Positions 1-15,154 of a stretch of 15,630 nt of DNA are shown piece by piece. The stretch's first letter is position 1. Each line of letters opens with the position of its first letter. The translations under genes and the position numbers were made by a program. The notes beneath the pieces were generated by a model that was not told where the DNA came from, did not search any database, and worked only from the letters and a program-made list of their open reading frames with translations. This DNA comes from a virus (lineage: Duplodnaviria > Heunggongvirae > Uroviricota > Caudoviricetes), in IMG/VR virus record IMGVR_UViG_2534681702_000002; one strand, 5' to 3'.

Positions 1-1164
1 TTACGCCTTCTTTATATCCTCCATAATTCCAGAGTGGGACATATTTGGGACATTATCACCAAAAATGTCGTCTATTTTCCTCGCATGCTCTGTCAAATGA
101 TTAGGCGCAAGGTGAGCATACCTACGAACCATTTCTATGGACTCCCATCCGCCCATTTCCTGAAGCACTGATAATGGGACGCCTGACTGAATCAGCCAGC
201 TTGCCCAGGTGTGTCTGAGGTCATGGAAACGGAAATCTTCAATTCCTGCACGACGACAAGCTGATAGCCATGATGTCTTGCTGTCGATGCGCATCTTCCT
301 GACCGCAGGCGTTGATGTTCCATCTGCTCGCTTAGCCGCCTTGGTATGTACAAACACCCATTTGTGATGCTTGCCTATTTGATCACGCAACACTTTACAG
401 GCGGTATCGTTCAGCGCCACACCAATGGCGCGGTTTGATTTGCTCTCTTCTGGATTCACCCAGGCAACTCGTCGCTGCATGTCGATTTGTTGCCATTCCA
501 GATTTATGATGTTCGACTTTCTCAGACCAGTTGCCAGCGCAAACTTGACGACAGATTTCAGTGGTTCGGGGCACTCATCAATAAGGCGTTTTGCTTCCTC
601 CTTTTCCAGCCATCTGACTCGCTTGTTTCTGACCGCTGGTATCTTGATGACAGGCGCTTTTTCCAGCCACTTCCAGTCGCGTTCTGCAGCACGGAGAATG
701 GCCTTTATCATGGCAAGATGCTTTGCCTTTGTCTGAGTTGATACTGGCTTTGGTTCATAAACAGGCGGTTCTTTACCTTTCCTGATGGCGGCCTGAACTT
801 TCTGTTTCCATATTTCTTTCGTCTTTCTGTTATGCATTCTGCTTACAGCAGAGTAAATCTTTGCCTCCGAGATATCTTTAAGCCTTATACCCTCAAAATG
901 TTCAAGCCAGAACTCAATCCGGCTTTTATCTGAATCGAGAGATTTTTTATCAGCTTTTTCCTCAAGCCATCTTAGGCAGGCCTCTTCAAAAGTGACATCA
1001 GGTAAATCCCCTAGCTTTTCTACTCGCCAGAGTTCTGCTTTTCGCTTGTCGTGCAACTCCTGAGCTTGCCGCTTGTCCTTTGTGCCAAGAGATTCCTTAA
1101 TTCGTTTCCCGCCCGGGAGCGAATACGAGGCATACCATATTTCATTTCTGCGGAAGAGTGACAT
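1..1164 (-). CDS. intD: Phage tyrosine integrase (387 aa), DLP12 IntD-like
   Basis: Full-length minus-strand ORF with ATG at 1164..1162 and GAGGAAAG Shine-Dalgarno upstream. C-terminal region carries the tyrosine-recombinase catalytic motifs (HDLRHT...RRY). The sequence matches my recollection of E. coli K-12 IntD. Confidence 0.88.
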
Positions 1165-2868: not shown

Positions 2869-3951
2869 TTAGAACTGATACACCAGACCTACAGCGACGA
2901 TGTCGTCGGTATCAATACCAGCTGTTTTGGTAAACTTACTATCGTCAATTAAGTTGATTTTGTAATCAACAAAAGTGGACATGTTTTTATTAAAGTAGTA
3001 AGTAGCACCGACATCGACATACTTGACTAAGTCTCGGTCACCATGAACACCAAGGTCTTTACCTTTTGACTGAAGGTAAGCAACAGATGGTCGCAGACCG
3101 AAGTCAAACTGATATTGTGCTACTGCTTCAAAGTTTTGTGCTTTGTTTGCAATATGGTTATTACCAAAAACGGTCATATTCTGAGTTTCAGAATATGTGG
3201 TAGCCAGATAGATATTGTTCGCATCATATTTCAGGCCTGCAGCCCATACTTCCGCATTTTTGCCGGAGGCATTGAATTTGCTCTTACCATAGGCGACCTG
3301 ACCGTCAGTGCGATCTGATTTAGCATAGGTTGCACCCACGCCGAATCCTTCATACTCATAAGTAGTGGAGAAACCGAAACCATCACCATTGGCTTCAGTT
3401 ACGTCAGTGCGGTCATTTTTACCCTGATACTGAGCAGCAAAGTTCAGGCCATCGACCAGACCAAAGAAGTCGTTGTTACGATAGGTTGCAACACCAGTGG
3501 TGCGACCAGTCATGAACACATCTGTTTGGGTCCAGGTATCGCCACCGAATTCTGGCAGAACGTCAGTCCACGCACCGATGTCGTATGCTACACCGTAGTT
3601 ACGGCCGTAATCGATTGAGCCGTAGTCACCGAATTTCAGGCCTGCAAATGCAAGACGGGTTTTGTCTTTGGAGGAACCTTGAGATTCAGCGCGGTTGCCT
3701 TTGAATTCATATTCCCACTGACCGAAACCAGTCAGTTGATCGTTGATTTGGGTTTCACCTTTGAAGCCAAGACGGGCATAAGTAGTATCACCATCATCTG
3801 CATCGTTAGAGGAAAAGTAGTGCTTGGCATTAACTTTCCCGTACAGATCCAGCTTGTTACTGTCTTTATTATAAATTTCAGCTGCCTGAGCAGACATCGT
3901 CATCAGTACTGATGCAGCTACAGCAGAAATTGCCACTGTTAATTTTTTCAT
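2869..3951 (-). CDS. nmpC: Outer-membrane porin, OmpC/Lc family (NmpC-like), 360 aa, apparently intact
   Basis: Signal peptide [23 protein letters not shown] followed by [16 protein letters not shown] and a C-terminal ...AVGLVYQF beta-barrel terminus. This is the classic general-porin signature and matches recalled NmpC/Lc. Confidence 0.85.
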
Positions 3952-4539
3952 CGTGAGCCCTTTTTTTTGAACTATTATTAAAAAATGATGTCACTGCGCG
4001 ATAAATATTCATCTAATCAATGTGATTATTTCAAGATGTAAGTTTTAGTTTCTCATTTAATTTGTGAAGTAGATCTCTATTTTTATCTGAACTTTTTCTA
4101 TCGAAACCTATTTATGGCTCTTATTTGAACAAAAATAAACCTATTAGCTAATTTATATTAATGGCTGTTATTTATGGGGGGGCTATAATTCGGTGGTTTA
4201 ATTTAAATCAACTAAAAATAACGCCGGAAATTATTTATTGGTTATTTGTTGAGGTTTTCTTATATATTTGTGGTGGTGTTTTGAACACTCGGTAGCATTC
4301 TCATAAATATCATTCAGTGGTTTACGTACGTAAAAAATTGGTTATGCTGTTAAGAGTGGTTACTTCGTCACACAGCTTAAACCCGCCGTCGAGCTGGTTT
4401 TTCCATTTTTTGAGTCTCGATATTAGCTGATAACTCAATACCTGAGTTATTCACTGACTCCGAGTCTGTTACGTTTCTGCTTTTTTGCGATACGTTGTAT
4501 TCCCTCAATTTACACCCGCTTTGTCTGCGAGGTGGGGTT

Positions 4540-4755
4540 ATGAAATCCATGGATAAGTTAACAACGGGTGTCGCCTATGGCACCTCAGCAGGTAGTGCCG
4601 GTTACTGGTTTTTACAGCTGCTCGATAAAGTCACGCCCTCACAGTGGGCAGCAATAGGTGTGCTGGGTAGCCTGGTATTTGGCCTGCTGACGTACCTGAC
4701 AAACCTTTATTTCAAGATTAAAGAAGATAAGCGCAAGGCTGCGAGAGGTGAATAA
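4540..4755 (+). CDS. essD: Class II holin (pinholin), S21-like, 71 aa
   Basis: [71 protein letters not shown] matches recalled phage 21 S / EssD. Real start is the ATG at 4540, inside the longer track ORF. Confidence 0.85.
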
Positions 4756-5252
4756 TGCCTCCATAATTACGAAAAGCCGTTGCTGCTGCTATTGGTGGCG
4801 GAGCAATTGCTATAGCATCAGTGTTAATCACTGGCCCAAGTGGTAACGATGGTCTGGAAGGTGTCAGCTACATACCATACAAAGATATTGTTGGTGTATG
4901 GACTGTATGTCACGGGCATACAGGAAAAGACATCATGCTCGGTAAAACGTATACCAAAGCAGAATGCAAAGCCCTCCTGAATAAAGACCTTGCCACGGTC
5001 GCCAGACAAATTAACCCGTACATAAAAGTTGATATACCGGAAACAACGCGCGGCGCTCTTTACTCGTTCGTTTACAACGTGGGCGCTGGCAATTTCAGAA
5101 CATCGACGCTTCTTCGCAAAATAAACCAGGGCGATATCAAAGGCGCATGTGATCAGCTACGTCGCTGGACATATGCTGGCGGTAAGCAATGGAAAGGTCT
5201 CATGACTCGTCGTGAGATTGAGCGTGAAATCTGTTTGTGGGGTCAGCAATGA
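4755..5252 (+). pseudogene. rrrD: SAR-endolysin (R21/RrrD-type lysozyme) with an in-frame TAA at codon 4; only a GTG at 4821 could restart, giving a 143-aa product without the N-terminal SAR domain
   Basis: The ATG at 4755..4757 overlaps the holin stop (TAATG coupling) and is followed by CCT CCA TAA. The same frame continues as [32 protein letters not shown]... (SAR hydrophobic segment) into the lysozyme domain. Recalled RrrD starts [12 protein letters not shown]..., so codon 4 TCA has become TAA. Confidence 0.6.
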
Positions 5253-10052: not shown

Positions 10053-10596
10053 TAAACAGTATGTATATCATAGGTTATTAATTGTGAGTTTTTTCGGTGT
10101 GTTATTTGTTTGTTTGATGTTATGCTTTTGCGCCCCAAAAGGTTGTTTAGATGTATTTTATCAATTGATTTTCAATGTCGTTTAATAAAGAAAAATTAAG
10201 CAAGCTGGATGTTGGTTTTTTGTTAATTGAATGGTTCTAATAATGTTTTTTTACTGTTGTTGAATGTGACTTGATAAGAAATGCAAGTAAAAATGATACT
10301 CTTTTTATTTTAAATTCAAACGGTTGACATATATATAGCAAGAGGTTTCAGGTGCGTTGTAGTGAGTTTATGTTAATAAAAAGTATAGTAAGCGTTGAAA
10401 AATGTAACTTTGAAATACGTTAGAATAAAAACAATATACATATAATAATTTAATCTTAAATGAAATTTATTAAAATTTGCAAACTATAATTTTGTGTATA
10501 AAAATATAAATGCACATCATCCTGATTATGATTGTGTATTTAATTGGTTGTTATTTGACTGCTATCAACTTGTTTTAATTTTATGATAGGTGCAAG

Positions 10597-11339
10597 ATGG
10601 ATTATGTTTGCTCCGTAGTTTTCATCTGTCAATCATTTGATTTAATTATAAACAGGAGAGTTATCTCGTTCAAAAAAAATTCATTGTTTATTGTAAGCGA
10701 CAAAATTAGAAGGGAGTTACCAGTATGCCCCTCTAAACTAAGAATTGTTGATATAGATAAGAAAACATGTTTATCCTTTTTTATCGACGTGAATAATGAG
10801 CTGCCTGGCAAATTTACTCTTGATAAGAATGGCTATATTGCTGAAGAGGAACCTCCATTATCGCTTGTTTTTTCTCTGTTTGAAGGGATTAAAATAGCAG
10901 ACTCACACTCCCTTTGGTTAAAAGAAAGACTATGTATATCCTTACTTGCCATGTTCAAAAAACGCGAAAGTGTAAATTCATTTATACTAACAAATATAAA
11001 TACATTCACCTGTAAAATTACTGGAATAATCAGTTTTAATATTGAGCGGCAATGGCATTTAAAAGATATTGCGGAATTGATTTATACGAGTGAAAGTTTA
11101 ATAAAAAAAGATTAAGGGATGAAGGAACGTCATTTACTGAAATATTGAGAGATACTAGGATGAGGTATGCAAAAAAACTCATAACTTCAAACTCTTATTC
11201 TATCAATGTCGTAGCCCAGAAATGTGGCTATAACAGTACTTCATATTTCATATGTGCATTTAAAGATTATTATGGTGTCACGCCATCTCATTATTTTGAG
11301 AAAATAATCGGCGTCACAGATGGAATAAACAGGTAATGA
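10597..11339 (+). pseudogene. appY: AraC-family regulator AppY, disrupted by a 1-bp frameshift at an A7 run (11103..11109) and by an IS1 insertion 12 nt before its native stop
   Basis: The 172-aa ORF (10597..11115) and the 63-aa ORF (11145..11336) are in different frames, yet together form a continuous AraC-type C-terminal helix-turn-helix domain (...[19 protein letters not shown] / [25 protein letters not shown]...[18 protein letters not shown]). The native last codons (AAA ACA ATT GAC TGA) lie at 12882..12896, beyond the IS1 pair. Confidence 0.85.
11323..11331. repeat. 9-bp target-site duplication GAATAAACA, left copy, of the outer IS1
   Basis: Identical 9-mer immediately flanks both ends of the outer IS1 (11323..11331 and 12876..12884). 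Confidence 0.85.
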
Positions 11340-11378
11340 CTCCAACTTATTGATAGTGTTTTAGGTAGTGACTCCAAC

Positions 11379-11882
11379 TTACTGATAGTGTTTTATGTTC
11401 AGATAATGCCCGATGACCTTGTCATGCAGCTCCACCGATTTTGAGAACGACAGTGACTTCCGTCCCAGCCTTGCCAGATGTTGTCTCAGATTCAGATTAT
11501 GTCGCTCAATGCGCTGAGTGTAACGCTTGCTGATAACGTGCAGCTTTCCCTTCAGGCGTGATTCATACAGCGGCCAGCCATCCGTCATCCATACCACGAC
11601 CTCAAAGGCCGACAGCAGGCTCAGAAGACGCGCCAGTGTGGCCAGAGTGCGTTCACCGAAAACGTGCGCCACAACTGTCCTCCGTATCCTGTCATACGCG
11701 TAAAACAGCCAGCGCTGACGTGATTTAGCACCGACGTAGCCCCACTGTTCGTCCATTTCCGCGCAGACAATCACATCACTGCCCGGTTGTATGCGCGAGG
11801 TTACCGACTGCGGCCTGAGTTTTTTAAGTGACGTAAAACCGTGTTGAGGCCAACGCCCATAATGCGGGCAGTTGCCCGGCAT
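11379..11882 (-). CDS. insB: IS1 InsB reading frame (167 aa), expressed as the InsAB' transposase by -1 frameshifting; inner copy
   Basis: Translation matches IS1 InsB. Overlaps insA in the -1 frame. Identical at protein level to the copy at 14634..15137. Confidence 0.9.
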
Positions 11883-12076
11883 CCAACGCCATTCATGGCC
11901 ATATCAATGATTTTCTGGTGCGTACCGGGTTGAGAAGCGGTGTAAGTGAACTGCAGTTGCCATGTTTTACGGCAGTGAGAGCAGAGATAGCGCTGATGTC
12001 CGGCGGTGCTTTTGCCGTTACGCACCACCCCGTCAGTAGCTGAACAGGAGGGACAGCTGATAGAAACAGAAGCCAC
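11801..12076 (-). CDS. insA: IS1 InsA (91 aa), inner copy
   Basis: [43 protein letters not shown]... is the zinc-finger plus HTH InsA. The A6C frameshift motif (TTAAAAAAC) lies at its 3' end. Confidence 0.9.
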
Positions 12077-12104
12077 TGGAGCACCTCAAAAACACCATCA
12101 TACA

Positions 12105-12626
12105 CTAAATCAGTAAGTTGGCAGCATCACCGTGTTTTATGTTCAGATAATGCCCGATGACTTTGTCATGCAGCTCCACCGATTTTGAGAACGACAGCGA
12201 CTTCCGTCCCAGCCGTGCCAGGTGCTGCCTCAGATTCAGGTTATGCCGCTCAATTCGCTGCGTATATCGCTTGCTGATTGCGTGCAGCTTTCCCTTCAGG
12301 CGGGATTCATACAGCGGCCAGCCATCCGTCATCCATATCACCACGTCAAAGGGTGACAGCAGGCTCATAAGACGCCCCAGCGTCGCCATAGTGCGTTCAC
12401 CGAATACGTGCGCAACAACCGTCTTCCGGAGCCTGTCATACGCGTAAAACAGCCAGCGCTGGCGCGATTTAGCCCCGACGTATCCCCACTGTTCGTCCAT
12501 TTCCGCGCAGACGATGACGTCACTGCCCGGCTGTATGCGCGAGGTTACCGACTGCGGCCTGAGTTTTTTAAATGGCGGAAAATCGTGTTGAGGCCAACGC
12601 CCATAATGCGGGCGGTTGCCCGGCAT
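12105..12626 (-). CDS. insB: IS1 InsB reading frame, outer copy; C-terminus altered (…[11 protein letters not shown]) because the ORF runs into the inserted inner IS1
   Basis: About 90% identical to the inner InsB. The last two native codons (YQ) are replaced by read-through into the inner IS1 end, extending the ORF to 173 aa. Confidence 0.8.
12132..12139. repeat. 8-bp target-site duplication GTGTTTTA, right copy, of the inner IS1 (left copy at 11356..11363)
   Basis: Direct 8-bp repeat, itself part of the outer IS1 sequence, flanking the inner 768-bp element. Confidence 0.85.
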
Positions 12627-12820
12627 CCAACGCCATTCATGGCCATATCAATGATTTTCTGGTGCGTACCGGGTTGAGAAGCGGTGTAAGTGAACTGCAG
12701 TTGCCATGTTTTACGGCAGTGAGAGCAGAGATAGCGCTGATGTCCGGCAGTGCTTTTGCCGTTACGCACCACCCCGTCAGTAGCTGAACAGGAGGGACAG
12801 CTGATAGAAACAGAAGCCAC
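12545..12820 (-). CDS. insA: IS1 InsA (91 aa), outer copy
   Basis: InsA-like. Differs from the inner copy at two residues (…GLNTIFRHL versus …GLNTVLRHL). Confidence 0.9.
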
Positions 12821-12875
12821 TGGAGCACCTCAAAAACACCATCATACACTAAATCAGTAAGTTGGCAGCATCACC

Positions 12876-12884
12876 GAATAAACA
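12876..12884. repeat. 9-bp target-site duplication GAATAAACA, right copy, of the outer IS1; also restores the native appY 3' end
   Basis: Same 9-mer as 11323..11331. Reading across it gives ...GGA ATA AAC AAA ACA ATT GAC TGA (G I N K T I D *). Confidence 0.85.
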
Positions 12885-13103
12885 AAACAATTGACTGATA
12901 ATGTTTATTACAAGTTGTCTACATGTTAATTATAATATTATACAGCGTTTTTTTGATGTGATATTCTGGAACCATTAATTTGTAATTGGGTTGCTGTCGC
13001 CTATTTTATACATGCTATAATTGATGGTTTTCTATGTGATTTAGTTAATAACCTTCTGGGTTTATTTTAAGGGTTAATTGTTACATTGAAATGGCTAGTT
13101 ATT

Positions 13104-13146: not shown

Positions 13147-14100
13147 TTAAAATGTGTACTTAAGACCAGCAGTAGTGATGAAGTTATAGTTTTCTATACC
13201 TGCTCCATTTTTGCTGTAGTCTGAAGTGTTATTATTGTGATCATAAAGTGAAGTATTACCTTTTTTATTCGTAACCCGATTCCATGCGCCTTCAACATAA
13301 ACTTTTGCGTTAGGTGTGACGTAATAACCTGCATTGACTGCAACAGAATAGTAATTTTGGTCTTTGACCTTACTGCGATAAGTGATTCTTTTTCCCGGGT
13401 CATAGTGTTCATCGTTATCAGATGATTCCACCCAGCCGCTGTATTTAAATGTGCCACCGAGTTCAAAATCTTCATAACGATAACTTCCAGTCAAGCCAAT
13501 GTAGGGCATTTTAAAACGTTGTTTGTAGCCGATTGCTCTTTCTCCATTCGGGAAGGAGCCGATATCATCTCTGAATCCCTCCTCAGAACTGTAGATATAG
13601 GAACCACCTCTGGCTGTAAAGCTATAACGGCTTTCCTGATATCCGGCCATGAGTCCCAGGCGGTAATTGGGTTCGTTGAGGAGCCAACCTTTGATATTCA
13701 GATCAAATTCGTTGGCATAATTGAGTTGTGTATCAGGGTGTCTACTTTCATCCGTCCAGGTTCCGGGGTTACTGGAATCCATCCAGTCCTGATCGACCAT
13801 ATTGCCACCTCGGCTGCCGAGAGTTGTCCAGCCAGCAGCCCCGATAGATATCTGGGGCATCAAATCCCAATTAATTGCACCTTTAATAATTGCAGCGTTA
13901 TTGAATTTCCAATCGAGTTGACTGACTTTTCGGCCTCCTTCTTCGGCTAGATAAACACGCTCTTTTGTTTTTCCGCTCAGAGTTCCAAAACTAATGTCCG
14001 CATTTATGTTGTCAGGAGTAAACGATATAGTCTCGGTAGAAGCAAAAGAGCTGATCGCAATAGGGGTTGTCAGGACTATTCCCAGAAGTTTCGCCCGCAT
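13147..14100 (-). CDS. ompT: Outer-membrane protease OmpT (omptin, protease VII), 317 aa
   Basis: MRAKLLGIVLTTPIAISSFASTETISFTPDNINADISFGTLSGKTKERVYLAEEGGRKVSQLDWKFNNAAIIKGAINWDL... matches recalled OmpT over the full length. Ends with the beta-barrel terminus ...AGLKYTF. Confidence 0.95.
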   Translation of the reverse strand: MRAKLLGIVLTTPIAISSFASTETISFTPDNINADISFGTLSGKTKERVYLAEEGGRKVSQLDWKFNNAAIIKGAINWDLMPQISIGAAGWTTLGSRGGNMVDQDWMDSSNPGTWTDESRHPDTQLNYANEFDLNIKGWLLNEPNYRLGLMAGYQESRYSFTARGGSYIYSSEEGFRDDIGSFPNGERAIGYKQRFKMPYIGLTGSYRYEDFELGGTFKYSGWVESSDNDEHYDPGKRITYRSKVKDQNYYSVAVNAGYYVTPNAKVYVEGAWNRVTNKKGNTSLYDHNNNTSDYSKNGAGIENYNFITTAGLKYTF

Positions 14101-14439
14101 AAAAGTTCTCCATTCAATCGTTTTAATGATTGAATATGTATTTTTTATATCTAACTTAATGAGTCAATTACATATTGCTCCACTGTTTATATTTTGTTTA
14201 GTATTGAATGATTATCACAATGCGCTATCTGTTTTTGGTTTAATTATCTGTTATTGTTTCATATTGCGGTTTTACTGTGTGGTTTTTTTATGCTTTTGTG
14301 GTGCTTTTATCTATTTAAGTGCCATGCCTTTAGAGGCATATAAGCGAAAATAGCATGAGGTTTATCCTCAATTACTATGTTTTTGGTGATGCTGCCAACT
14401 TACTGATTTAGTGTATGATGGTGTTTTTGAGGTGCTCCA

Positions 14440-14715
14440 GTGGCTTCTGTTTCTATCAGCTGTCCCTCCTGTTCAGCTACTGACGGGGTGGTGCGTAACG
14501 GCAAAAGCACCGCCGGACATCAGCGCTATCTCTGCTCTCACTGCCGTAAAACATGGCAACTGCAGTTCACTTACACCGCTTCTCAACCCGGTACGCACCA
14601 GAAAATCATTGATATGGCCATGAATGGCGTTGGATGCCGGGCAACTGCCCGCATTATGGGCGTTGGCCTCAACACGGTTTTACGTCACTTAAAAAACTCA
14701 GGCCGCAGTCGGTAA
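14440..14715 (+). CDS. insA: IS1 InsA (91 aa), third copy
   Basis: Protein identical to InsA of the inner IS1. Confidence 0.9.
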
Positions 14716-15137
14716 CCTCGCGCATACAACCGGGCAGTGATGTGATTGTCTGCGCGGAAATGGACGAACAGTGGGGCTACGTCGGTGCTAAATCACGTCA
14801 GCGCTGGCTGTTTTACGCGTATGACAGGATACGGAGGACAGTTGTGGCGCACGTTTTCGGTGAACGCACTCTGGCCACACTGGCGCGTCTTCTGAGCCTG
14901 CTGTCGGCCTTTGAGGTCGTGGTATGGATGACGGATGGCTGGCCGCTGTATGAATCACGCCTGAAGGGAAAGCTGCACGTTATCAGCAAGCGTTACACTC
15001 AGCGCATTGAGCGACATAATCTGAATCTGAGACAACATCTGGCAAGGCTGGGACGGAAGTCACTGTCGTTCTCAAAATCGGTGGAGCTGCATGACAAGGT
15101 CATCGGGCATTATCTGAACATAAAACACTATCAGTAA
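14634..15137 (+). CDS. insB: IS1 InsB reading frame (167 aa), third copy
   Basis: Protein identical to InsB of the inner IS1. A6C frameshift motif TTAAAAAACTC at about 14690. Confidence 0.9.
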
Positions 15138-15154
15138 GTTGGAGTCACTACCCG

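Follow-up and report, generated by a model that had tools for sequence, protein, structure and literature searches.

A one-base poly-A contraction splits the DLP12 regulator gene appY and is more likely than not a homopolymer under-call

The appY gene in the stretch of DNA analysed here (15,630 nucleotides, referred to below as the window) lacks one A in a poly-A run within helix-turn-helix 1 (HTH1) of its AraC-type DNA-binding domain, and as written it is either a pseudogene or a mis-called gene. Judging from comparison with other deposited assemblies, we lean modestly toward an error over a genuine change in the bacterium, and estimate at about 55% the probability that the A7 run is an assembly artefact, that is, a homopolymer under-call in a long-read-based assembly. 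A sequencing under-call would have left A7 in place of a true A8 at the run encoding AppY I169-R172, and the true appY of the strain would then encode a 246-aa, IS1-tailed and HTH-intact protein, as in the close ETEC O6:H16 relatives examined except 2011EL-1370-2.

appY in its prophage setting

The window comes from an E. coli strain and holds its cryptic prophage DLP12; FORC_031, E2386, 2014EL-1346-6 and similar ETEC O6:H16-type genomes match it at 99.95% identity. The gene order begins with intD and continues with rusA, quuD, a porin gene of the nmpC/ompC type, the lysis genes and the tail-fibre remnants, followed by appY and ompT (Table 1). Similar to K-12 appY (b0564, NP_415096.1), which encodes a member of the AraC/XylS family, the gene lies 3' of the tail-fibre remnants and adjoins ompT, the place expected for appY in DLP12. 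Orthology to the K-12 gene is equally clear, as nucleotide identity is 100% to codon 245 apart from one synonymous SNP (T to C at 11007) and the missing A, while the last four codons are replaced by IS1 sequence so that KTID becomes R. G+C content is 30% in the appY locus versus 44% in the window, and A/T runs are dense in the locus. The DLP12 porin gene (nmpC, annotated as ompC-like; 2869..3951) is whole and encodes 360 aa in the window, and is interrupted by IS5 in K-12. The segment from emrE to ybcO of the K-12 prophage is absent from the DLP12 of the window.

Table 1. Features of the window that bear on appY and its surroundings (positions are those of the window)
Feature	Positions	Strand	Remarks
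intD	1..1164	-	
A5 run 5' of appY	10427..10431	+	A6 in the 13 other loci readable; private to the window
appY 5' frame as written	10597..11115	+	172 codons and TAA; N-terminal domain and start of HTH1
Other A8 run within appY	10672..10679	+	codons F25 K26 K27 N28; unchanged in the window; comparison site
A7 run	11103..11109	+	A8 in K-12 and in ~97% of appY-carrying complete genomes
Rest of appY, -1 frame relative to the 5' part	11109..11336	+	R172...R246; rest of HTH1 and all of HTH2
IS1 copy A, terminal 32 nt	11332..11363	-	inserted in the appY 3' end
IS1 copy B, 768 bp	11364..12131	-	nested 32 nt inside copy A
IS1 copy A, remainder	12132..12875	-	
Displaced appY 3' end	12884..12898	+	AAA ACA ATT GAC TGA (K T I D stop)
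ompT	13147..14100	-	
IS1 copy C	14385..15152		

Loss of one A separates the two parts of the DNA-binding domain

At the site the window reads AGT TTA ATA AAA AAA GAT TAA, whereas K-12 MG1655, FORC_031, E2386 and 2014EL-1346-6 all read TTA ATA AAA AAA AGA TTA AGG. A8 is likewise found in strain WP2-S18-ESBL-07 and in all close ETEC relatives examined with the exception of 2011EL-1370-2. In the intact gene the run, ATA AAA AAA AGA, encodes I169 K170 K171 R172 in HTH1, and in the window the frame is lost at codon 172, directly after Lys170/Lys171. The resulting 172-aa product ends in ...SLIKKD* and has 100% amino-acid identity to residues 1-171 of K-12 AppY. Up to the IS1 junction, the gap of one A and the change at 11007 are all that distinguish the appY of the window from the K-12 and ETEC copies.

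An earlier note on this DNA, made from the letters alone, had proposed that the appY halves lie in different frames and that one missing A at 11103..11109 accounts for this. Alignment to intact K-12 appY, with A8 in K-12 and A7 in the window, and to the relatives agrees on both points. Its statement that the gene as written cannot produce an intact HTH also holds. HTH_18 spans residues 159-235 of intact AppY in Pfam; the 172-aa product has no Pfam domain match, and the downstream 63-aa ORF holds the second HTH. The two-HTH AraC domain (HTH_18/HTH_AraC), which occupies a single ORF in an intact regulator, is broken and divided between two frames. Insertion of one A yields a 246-aa protein that is identical to ETEC WP_001393528.1, a protein with the same IS1 site and the same GINR* end. 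The restored frame is therefore 246 aa and not 249 aa as the note had it, because IS1 replaces the KTID codons with R, and the stop of the downstream frame (11334..11336) lies 3 nt short of the end that had been placed at 11339.

The position of the contraction within the domain is of consequence, as a K170E substitution by itself eliminates DNA binding together with all AppY phenotypes that were assayed (Derdouri et al. 2023, PMC10057817). Since K170 and K171 lie at the run and K170E is enough to abolish DNA binding, appY as it stands in the window cannot encode a functional regulator.

A second contraction lies upstream of appY

Relative to FORC_031, E2386 and 2014EL-1346-6, which are mutually identical, the window has two indels. 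Both are -1 poly-A contractions within the 960-bp appY locus (A6 to A5 and A8 to A7), and zero indels were found across the other ~12.7 kb of comparable sequence. The A5 run lies ~170 bp upstream of the appY start codon and ~680 bp from the A7 run. Sixteen loci were compared at this site, and the 13 others that were readable have A6, while the A5 version has an exact match in one of 834 complete genomes (MIN14). Because A5 is almost unseen, two real contractions 680 bp apart would be a coincidence. Neither contraction is shared by any close relative, except for A7 in 2011EL-1370-2, a genome with an extra run deletion of its own. The other A8 run, the T8 run and all A7/T7 runs of the window are unchanged. 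This upstream contraction and the IS1 element at the appY 3' end are both absent from the earlier note.

Additionally, four private substitution events were found in the window, namely TCA to TAA in rrrD, TT to GG at 4181-4182, T to C at 11007 and a change at 12670. The first of these places a nonsense codon at codon 4 (4764..4766) of the DLP12 lysozyme gene rrrD (4755..5252). Not one of 5,426 complete genomes contains the TAA version; the codon is TCA in K-12 and in every relative retrieved, and when the truncated RrrD product was looked up, the matches were all unrelated contigs that lack the nonsense codon. Between the porin gene and essD, the window has G7 at 4176..4182 where relatives have GGGGGTT; this G7 is absent from the 5,426 complete genomes and was not found in any other record. 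The TT to GG change beside the G5 run could be a run-boundary base-calling error or a real double change.

The T to C change at 11007 is synonymous and, on this background, unmatched in the 837 complete genomes that carry this part of appY. Of 31 metagenome contigs, 2 of which are unreadable at the site, seven have 11007C, all together with A8. The base is also present in L011, a metagenome scaffold with A7, but as a link between L011 and the window it was rejected, given these seven A8 contigs and a difference between L011 and the window at 10980. The private markers (G7, the rrrD TAA and 11007C on this background) were also considered as a check on assembly accuracy and are uninformative, being absent from complete genomes. 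Real, clustered contractions could also stem from a defect in mismatch repair; the changed bases, only two of five being transitions, speak neither for nor against this. One of those two transitions, at 12670, matches the adjoining IS1 copy.

A7 recurs in public genomes both as a real allele and as an artefact

We surveyed 5,426 complete E. coli genomes, 837 of which carry this part of appY. A7 occurs in 19 of the 837 genomes. PGAP annotates appY there as a 'frameshifted' pseudogene, with the same contraction and the same 172-aa product as in the window. In a large protein collection the exact 172-aa product is found on 456 contigs (GenBank names such as QEF08796.1); most blocks with this product consist of short contigs, presumably from short-read assemblies. 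At least six appY haplotypes and prophage contexts carry A7, which therefore arose, or was called, many times. Contractions outnumber expansions, with 19 records against ~3-4 of A9 or longer, the latter comprising three A9 from one laboratory lineage and one longer variant; this imbalance counts toward under-calling. Metagenome contigs covering the site have A8 in 29 of 31 cases and A7 in the other two. A scan of viral_contigs for A7 gave 0 matches, and the three matches in genome_contigs are all A8. Our literature search found no description of an appY frameshift or of poly-A slippage; apart from reviews, it returned a large DLP12 deletion (DGF-298) and an appY mutation, of unspecified nature, in lines evolved anaerobically.

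The earlier note had offered a real pseudogene and a homopolymer artefact as the two possible origins, and public data contain both at this exact site. One clone has A7 in five independent assemblies in which all other runs of the locus are of normal length, and real A7 alleles therefore exist. Its members are 500010, CH10508, isolate 648 and CUVET20-PYO4, all complete, together with GCA_045574525.1. The complete genomes come from India, Pakistan, Spain and Thailand, and the members differ pairwise by 1-23 mismatches over 12-16 kb. appY with A7 is apparently a genuine, inherited pseudogene in this clone. Isolates of the clone were obtained from human hosts and one dog, and span two continents. 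Several other assemblies are also clean around the site. In ATCC BAA-196, A7 is the sole indel over 37.9 kb, with 0 mismatches to MG1655; no other indel occurs where a K-12-like draft (11.9 kb), ECCWS199 and N18-04097 could be aligned, nor across 4 kb of a metagenome scaffold. A7 in these five is probably real or an isolated event.

Other records point to miscalls. Over 28.8 kb the K-12 assembly CP047127 differs from MG1655 by 11 one-base deletions and 0 mismatches, and all the deletions fall at 583481..584256 (~800 bp, the appY locus) in runs or short repeats. These deletions include both sites contracted in the window, where true K-12 has A6 and A8, so that measured against the known K-12 sequence A7 in CP047127 is an artefact. 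Further records are artefact-like. Three runs of the appY locus have lost a base in S42, and 20AR0300 has both appY A8 runs contracted. Many homopolymer errors occur in BS-01 and in contig VOFH01000480; in PE15 envY is frameshifted too; SCU-482 has many indel calls, mostly +1; and 2011EL-1370-2, an ETEC genome of the window's lineage, has a private rzpD frameshift (C6 to C5). Thus, 7 of 14 sampled A7 records, from the 19 complete genomes, have further homopolymer indels nearby (CP047127, S42, 20AR0300, BS-01, 2011EL-1370-2, PE15 and SCU-482). In assemblies listed as 'complete' in RefSeq (NZ_CP047127.1, S42, 20AR0300 and SCU-482), clusters of miscalls are confined to the appY locus and the flanks are perfect; such clusters create false appY pseudogenes.

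The other A8 run within appY provides a further comparison. Six of 835 complete genomes have it shortened to A7. Two of them are contracted at 11103 as well, against ~0.14 expected for independent events. This excess of double contractions points to assembly quality as the driver.

Error versus genuine change in the window

We infer that the A7 of the window belongs to the same class as the miscalls described above. It is a one-base loss in a run of at least 6 nt relative to the consensus of close relatives, it is accompanied by another homopolymer deletion in the region (A6 to A5), and the same miscalls occur in a strain of known true sequence, the K-12 assembly CP047127. CP047127, S42 and 20AR0300 likewise have one-base A/T-run deletions at the very same positions of the appY locus and perfect flanks, with 3 to 11 such deletions against two in the window, and private substitutions elsewhere in the window only. 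The window assembly is probably based on long reads, because three IS1 copies, two of them identical, are resolved where a short-read assembly would normally break. In AT-rich regions, the coverage available for short-read polishing tends to be poor. Some observations speak against an under-call. Since the other 7- and 8-nt runs are unchanged, the assembly is not grossly noisy, and the strain has clearly diverged, with private substitutions, a nested IS1 and an 8.2-kb deletion in what is a decaying cryptic prophage, so that real private mutations are plausible.

A genuine pseudogene, created when slipped-strand mispairing in replication took one A from A8, is a serious possibility, though one we would bet against. 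The -1 frameshift would end translation two codons later (Asp172, stop) and cut off most of the DNA-binding domain from the N-terminal domain. The allele would be null, for a prophage regulator that is non-essential and silenced by H-NS; as K170E abolishes AppY function, truncation at residue 172 would certainly be null for DNA binding. The frameshift does fall at a homopolymer when compared with intact orthologues, and the DLP12 of the window is visibly decaying, as seen in the rrrD nonsense codon, the IS1 insertions and the envY-nfrB deletion. Indel rates in E. coli climb exponentially with homopolymer length (PMC8510543), which makes a real slip at an A8 run of a decaying prophage gene quite plausible, and a Salmonella study gives ~12% of A/T runs of at least 8 nt as mutated (PMC8538453). 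The fixation of A7 in a widespread clone, its occurrence as sole indel in otherwise clean assemblies and in one clean metagenome contig (L048) among the 31 covering the site, and the 456 contigs with the 172-aa product are also in keeping with a real allele. However, the A7 of the clone is inherited and is the sole altered run, whereas that of the window is private to one member of another lineage and comes with a second contraction, almost unseen elsewhere and matching the demonstrably artefactual assemblies. Independently sequenced close relatives do not share it by descent, those compared in detail being A8. Coverage of at least 80% of the window is reached by 58 complete genomes, and of these only 2011EL-1370-2, itself homopolymer-frameshifted, was seen to have A7; in addition, 7 of the 11 independent A7 occurrences that could be classified are artefact-like. 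These points favour a homopolymer under-call over a pseudogene.

Explanations that assign a function to the run fare poorly. Were the base truly missing, ribosomes slipping by -1, or RNA polymerase adding an A, could restore ...IKKRLR... at a low level and make the allele leaky, not null. The zero frame of the A7 allele does contain a slippery heptamer of the X_XXY_YYZ form, A_AAA_AAA, with G as the next base; after slippage at codons 170/171 reading would go on with AGA TTA AGG, and the zero-frame stop lies one codon downstream. E. coli dnaX (A_AAA_AAG) and IS1 insAB' (A_AAA_AAC) use such sites, which are likewise A-rich zero-frame heptamers with a functional continuation in the other frame. 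Unlike those sites, the run in the window has no significant stimulatory RNA structure downstream (fold z = 0.17) and no evident Shine-Dalgarno-like element upstream, and the two-frame arrangement is not conserved (~97% of orthologues are in frame), being only a mutation or error of an in-frame gene. Unstimulated slippage would be expected at ~1% or less, appY is presumably poorly expressed, and rescue of the A7 allele would be trace-level. We therefore regard recoding as very improbable, and give still less credence to a phase-variable contingency switch, in which a selected A8 repeat would toggle appY at high frequency between ON (A8) and OFF (A7 or A9). The repeat lies in the coding region, encodes a key DNA-contact lysine, and is found as A7 on at least six haplotypes and also as A9. 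Nevertheless, frequent two-way length variation was not seen, with 19 A7 and ~3-4 A9+ among 837 genomes; variant lengths amount to ~2-3% of genomes, a large share of them assembly errors. The other appY A8 run behaves alike, as expected in a gene of 30% G+C with Lys-Lys codons, AppY falls outside the surface and restriction-modification classes typical of contingency loci, and the clone with A7 keeps it stably. Phase variation by A8 runs is not known from mismatch-repair-proficient E. coli. A long shot combines elements of these proposals, with A8 as a recurrent, selected off-switch, A7 slightly leaky by -1 slippage, and the 172-aa N-terminal domain perhaps functional without DNA binding. If true, independent losses would have occurred in many lineages, including the global clone and this ETEC strain, under selection for relief of AppY-driven motility repression, for example.

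Consequences for appY and its annotation

Whichever origin applies to the window, A7 in appY is ordinary: loss of one base from this homopolymer is already known, has recurred, and affects a prophage gene that is dispensable. Were it real, this ETEC strain would be without AppY-dependent induction of hya, appCBA, gadE, gadY and nhaR, and would have lost a dispensable regulator of acid resistance, biofilm formation, hydrogenase-1 and cytochrome bd-II, as already recorded in other E. coli. The change thus carries little biological weight and its practical value is in quality control. With its high A/T content, the appY locus reproducibly invites homopolymer under-calls, and at this one site the databases contain real alleles alongside artefacts; annotations of a 'frameshifted appY' need read support before they are taken for pseudogenes.

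IS1 copies and rearrangements next to appY

The 3' end of appY has been altered by IS1. Copy A is flanked by a 9-bp target duplication, GAATAAACA, at 11323..11331 and 12876..12884. Its insertion is common to the ETEC O6:H16 relatives and changes the AppY C-terminus from GINKTID* to GINR*, with the displaced KTID end split from appY by ~1.5 kb of IS1 sequence. Copy B, nested within copy A, has an 8-bp target duplication, GTGTTTTA, at 11356..11363 and 12132..12139, and is private to the window. FORC_031, E2386 and 2014EL-1346-6 have an A8 appY that is annotated as intact, and the nested IS1, the A5 run and the T to C change at 11007 distinguish the window from them. The nested junction was found in none of the complete E. 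coli genomes, viral_contigs or genome_contigs, the 173-aa InsB variant that spans it is not on record, and our search for a sister assembly with this junction returned none.

Copy B is 100% identical to copy C and inverted relative to it. Together the two bracket ompT and the rest of copy A in a composite-transposon-like arrangement, which is reminiscent of the IS1-flanked Tn1681 of ETEC. Copy C has no target duplication (junctions at 14384/14385 and 15152/15153), and ~8.2 kb of FORC_031 sequence is missing between it and the region upstream of ompT, comprising envY, ybcH, nfrA, the nfrB pseudogene and an ISAs1 remnant; the missing segment and the lack of a duplication fit an IS1-adjacent deletion. 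Lastly, the sole difference between copy A of the window and that of FORC_031 and E2386 is at 12670, where C replaces T. The new base equals that of copy B, which suggests gene conversion between IS1 copies or cross-copy polishing.
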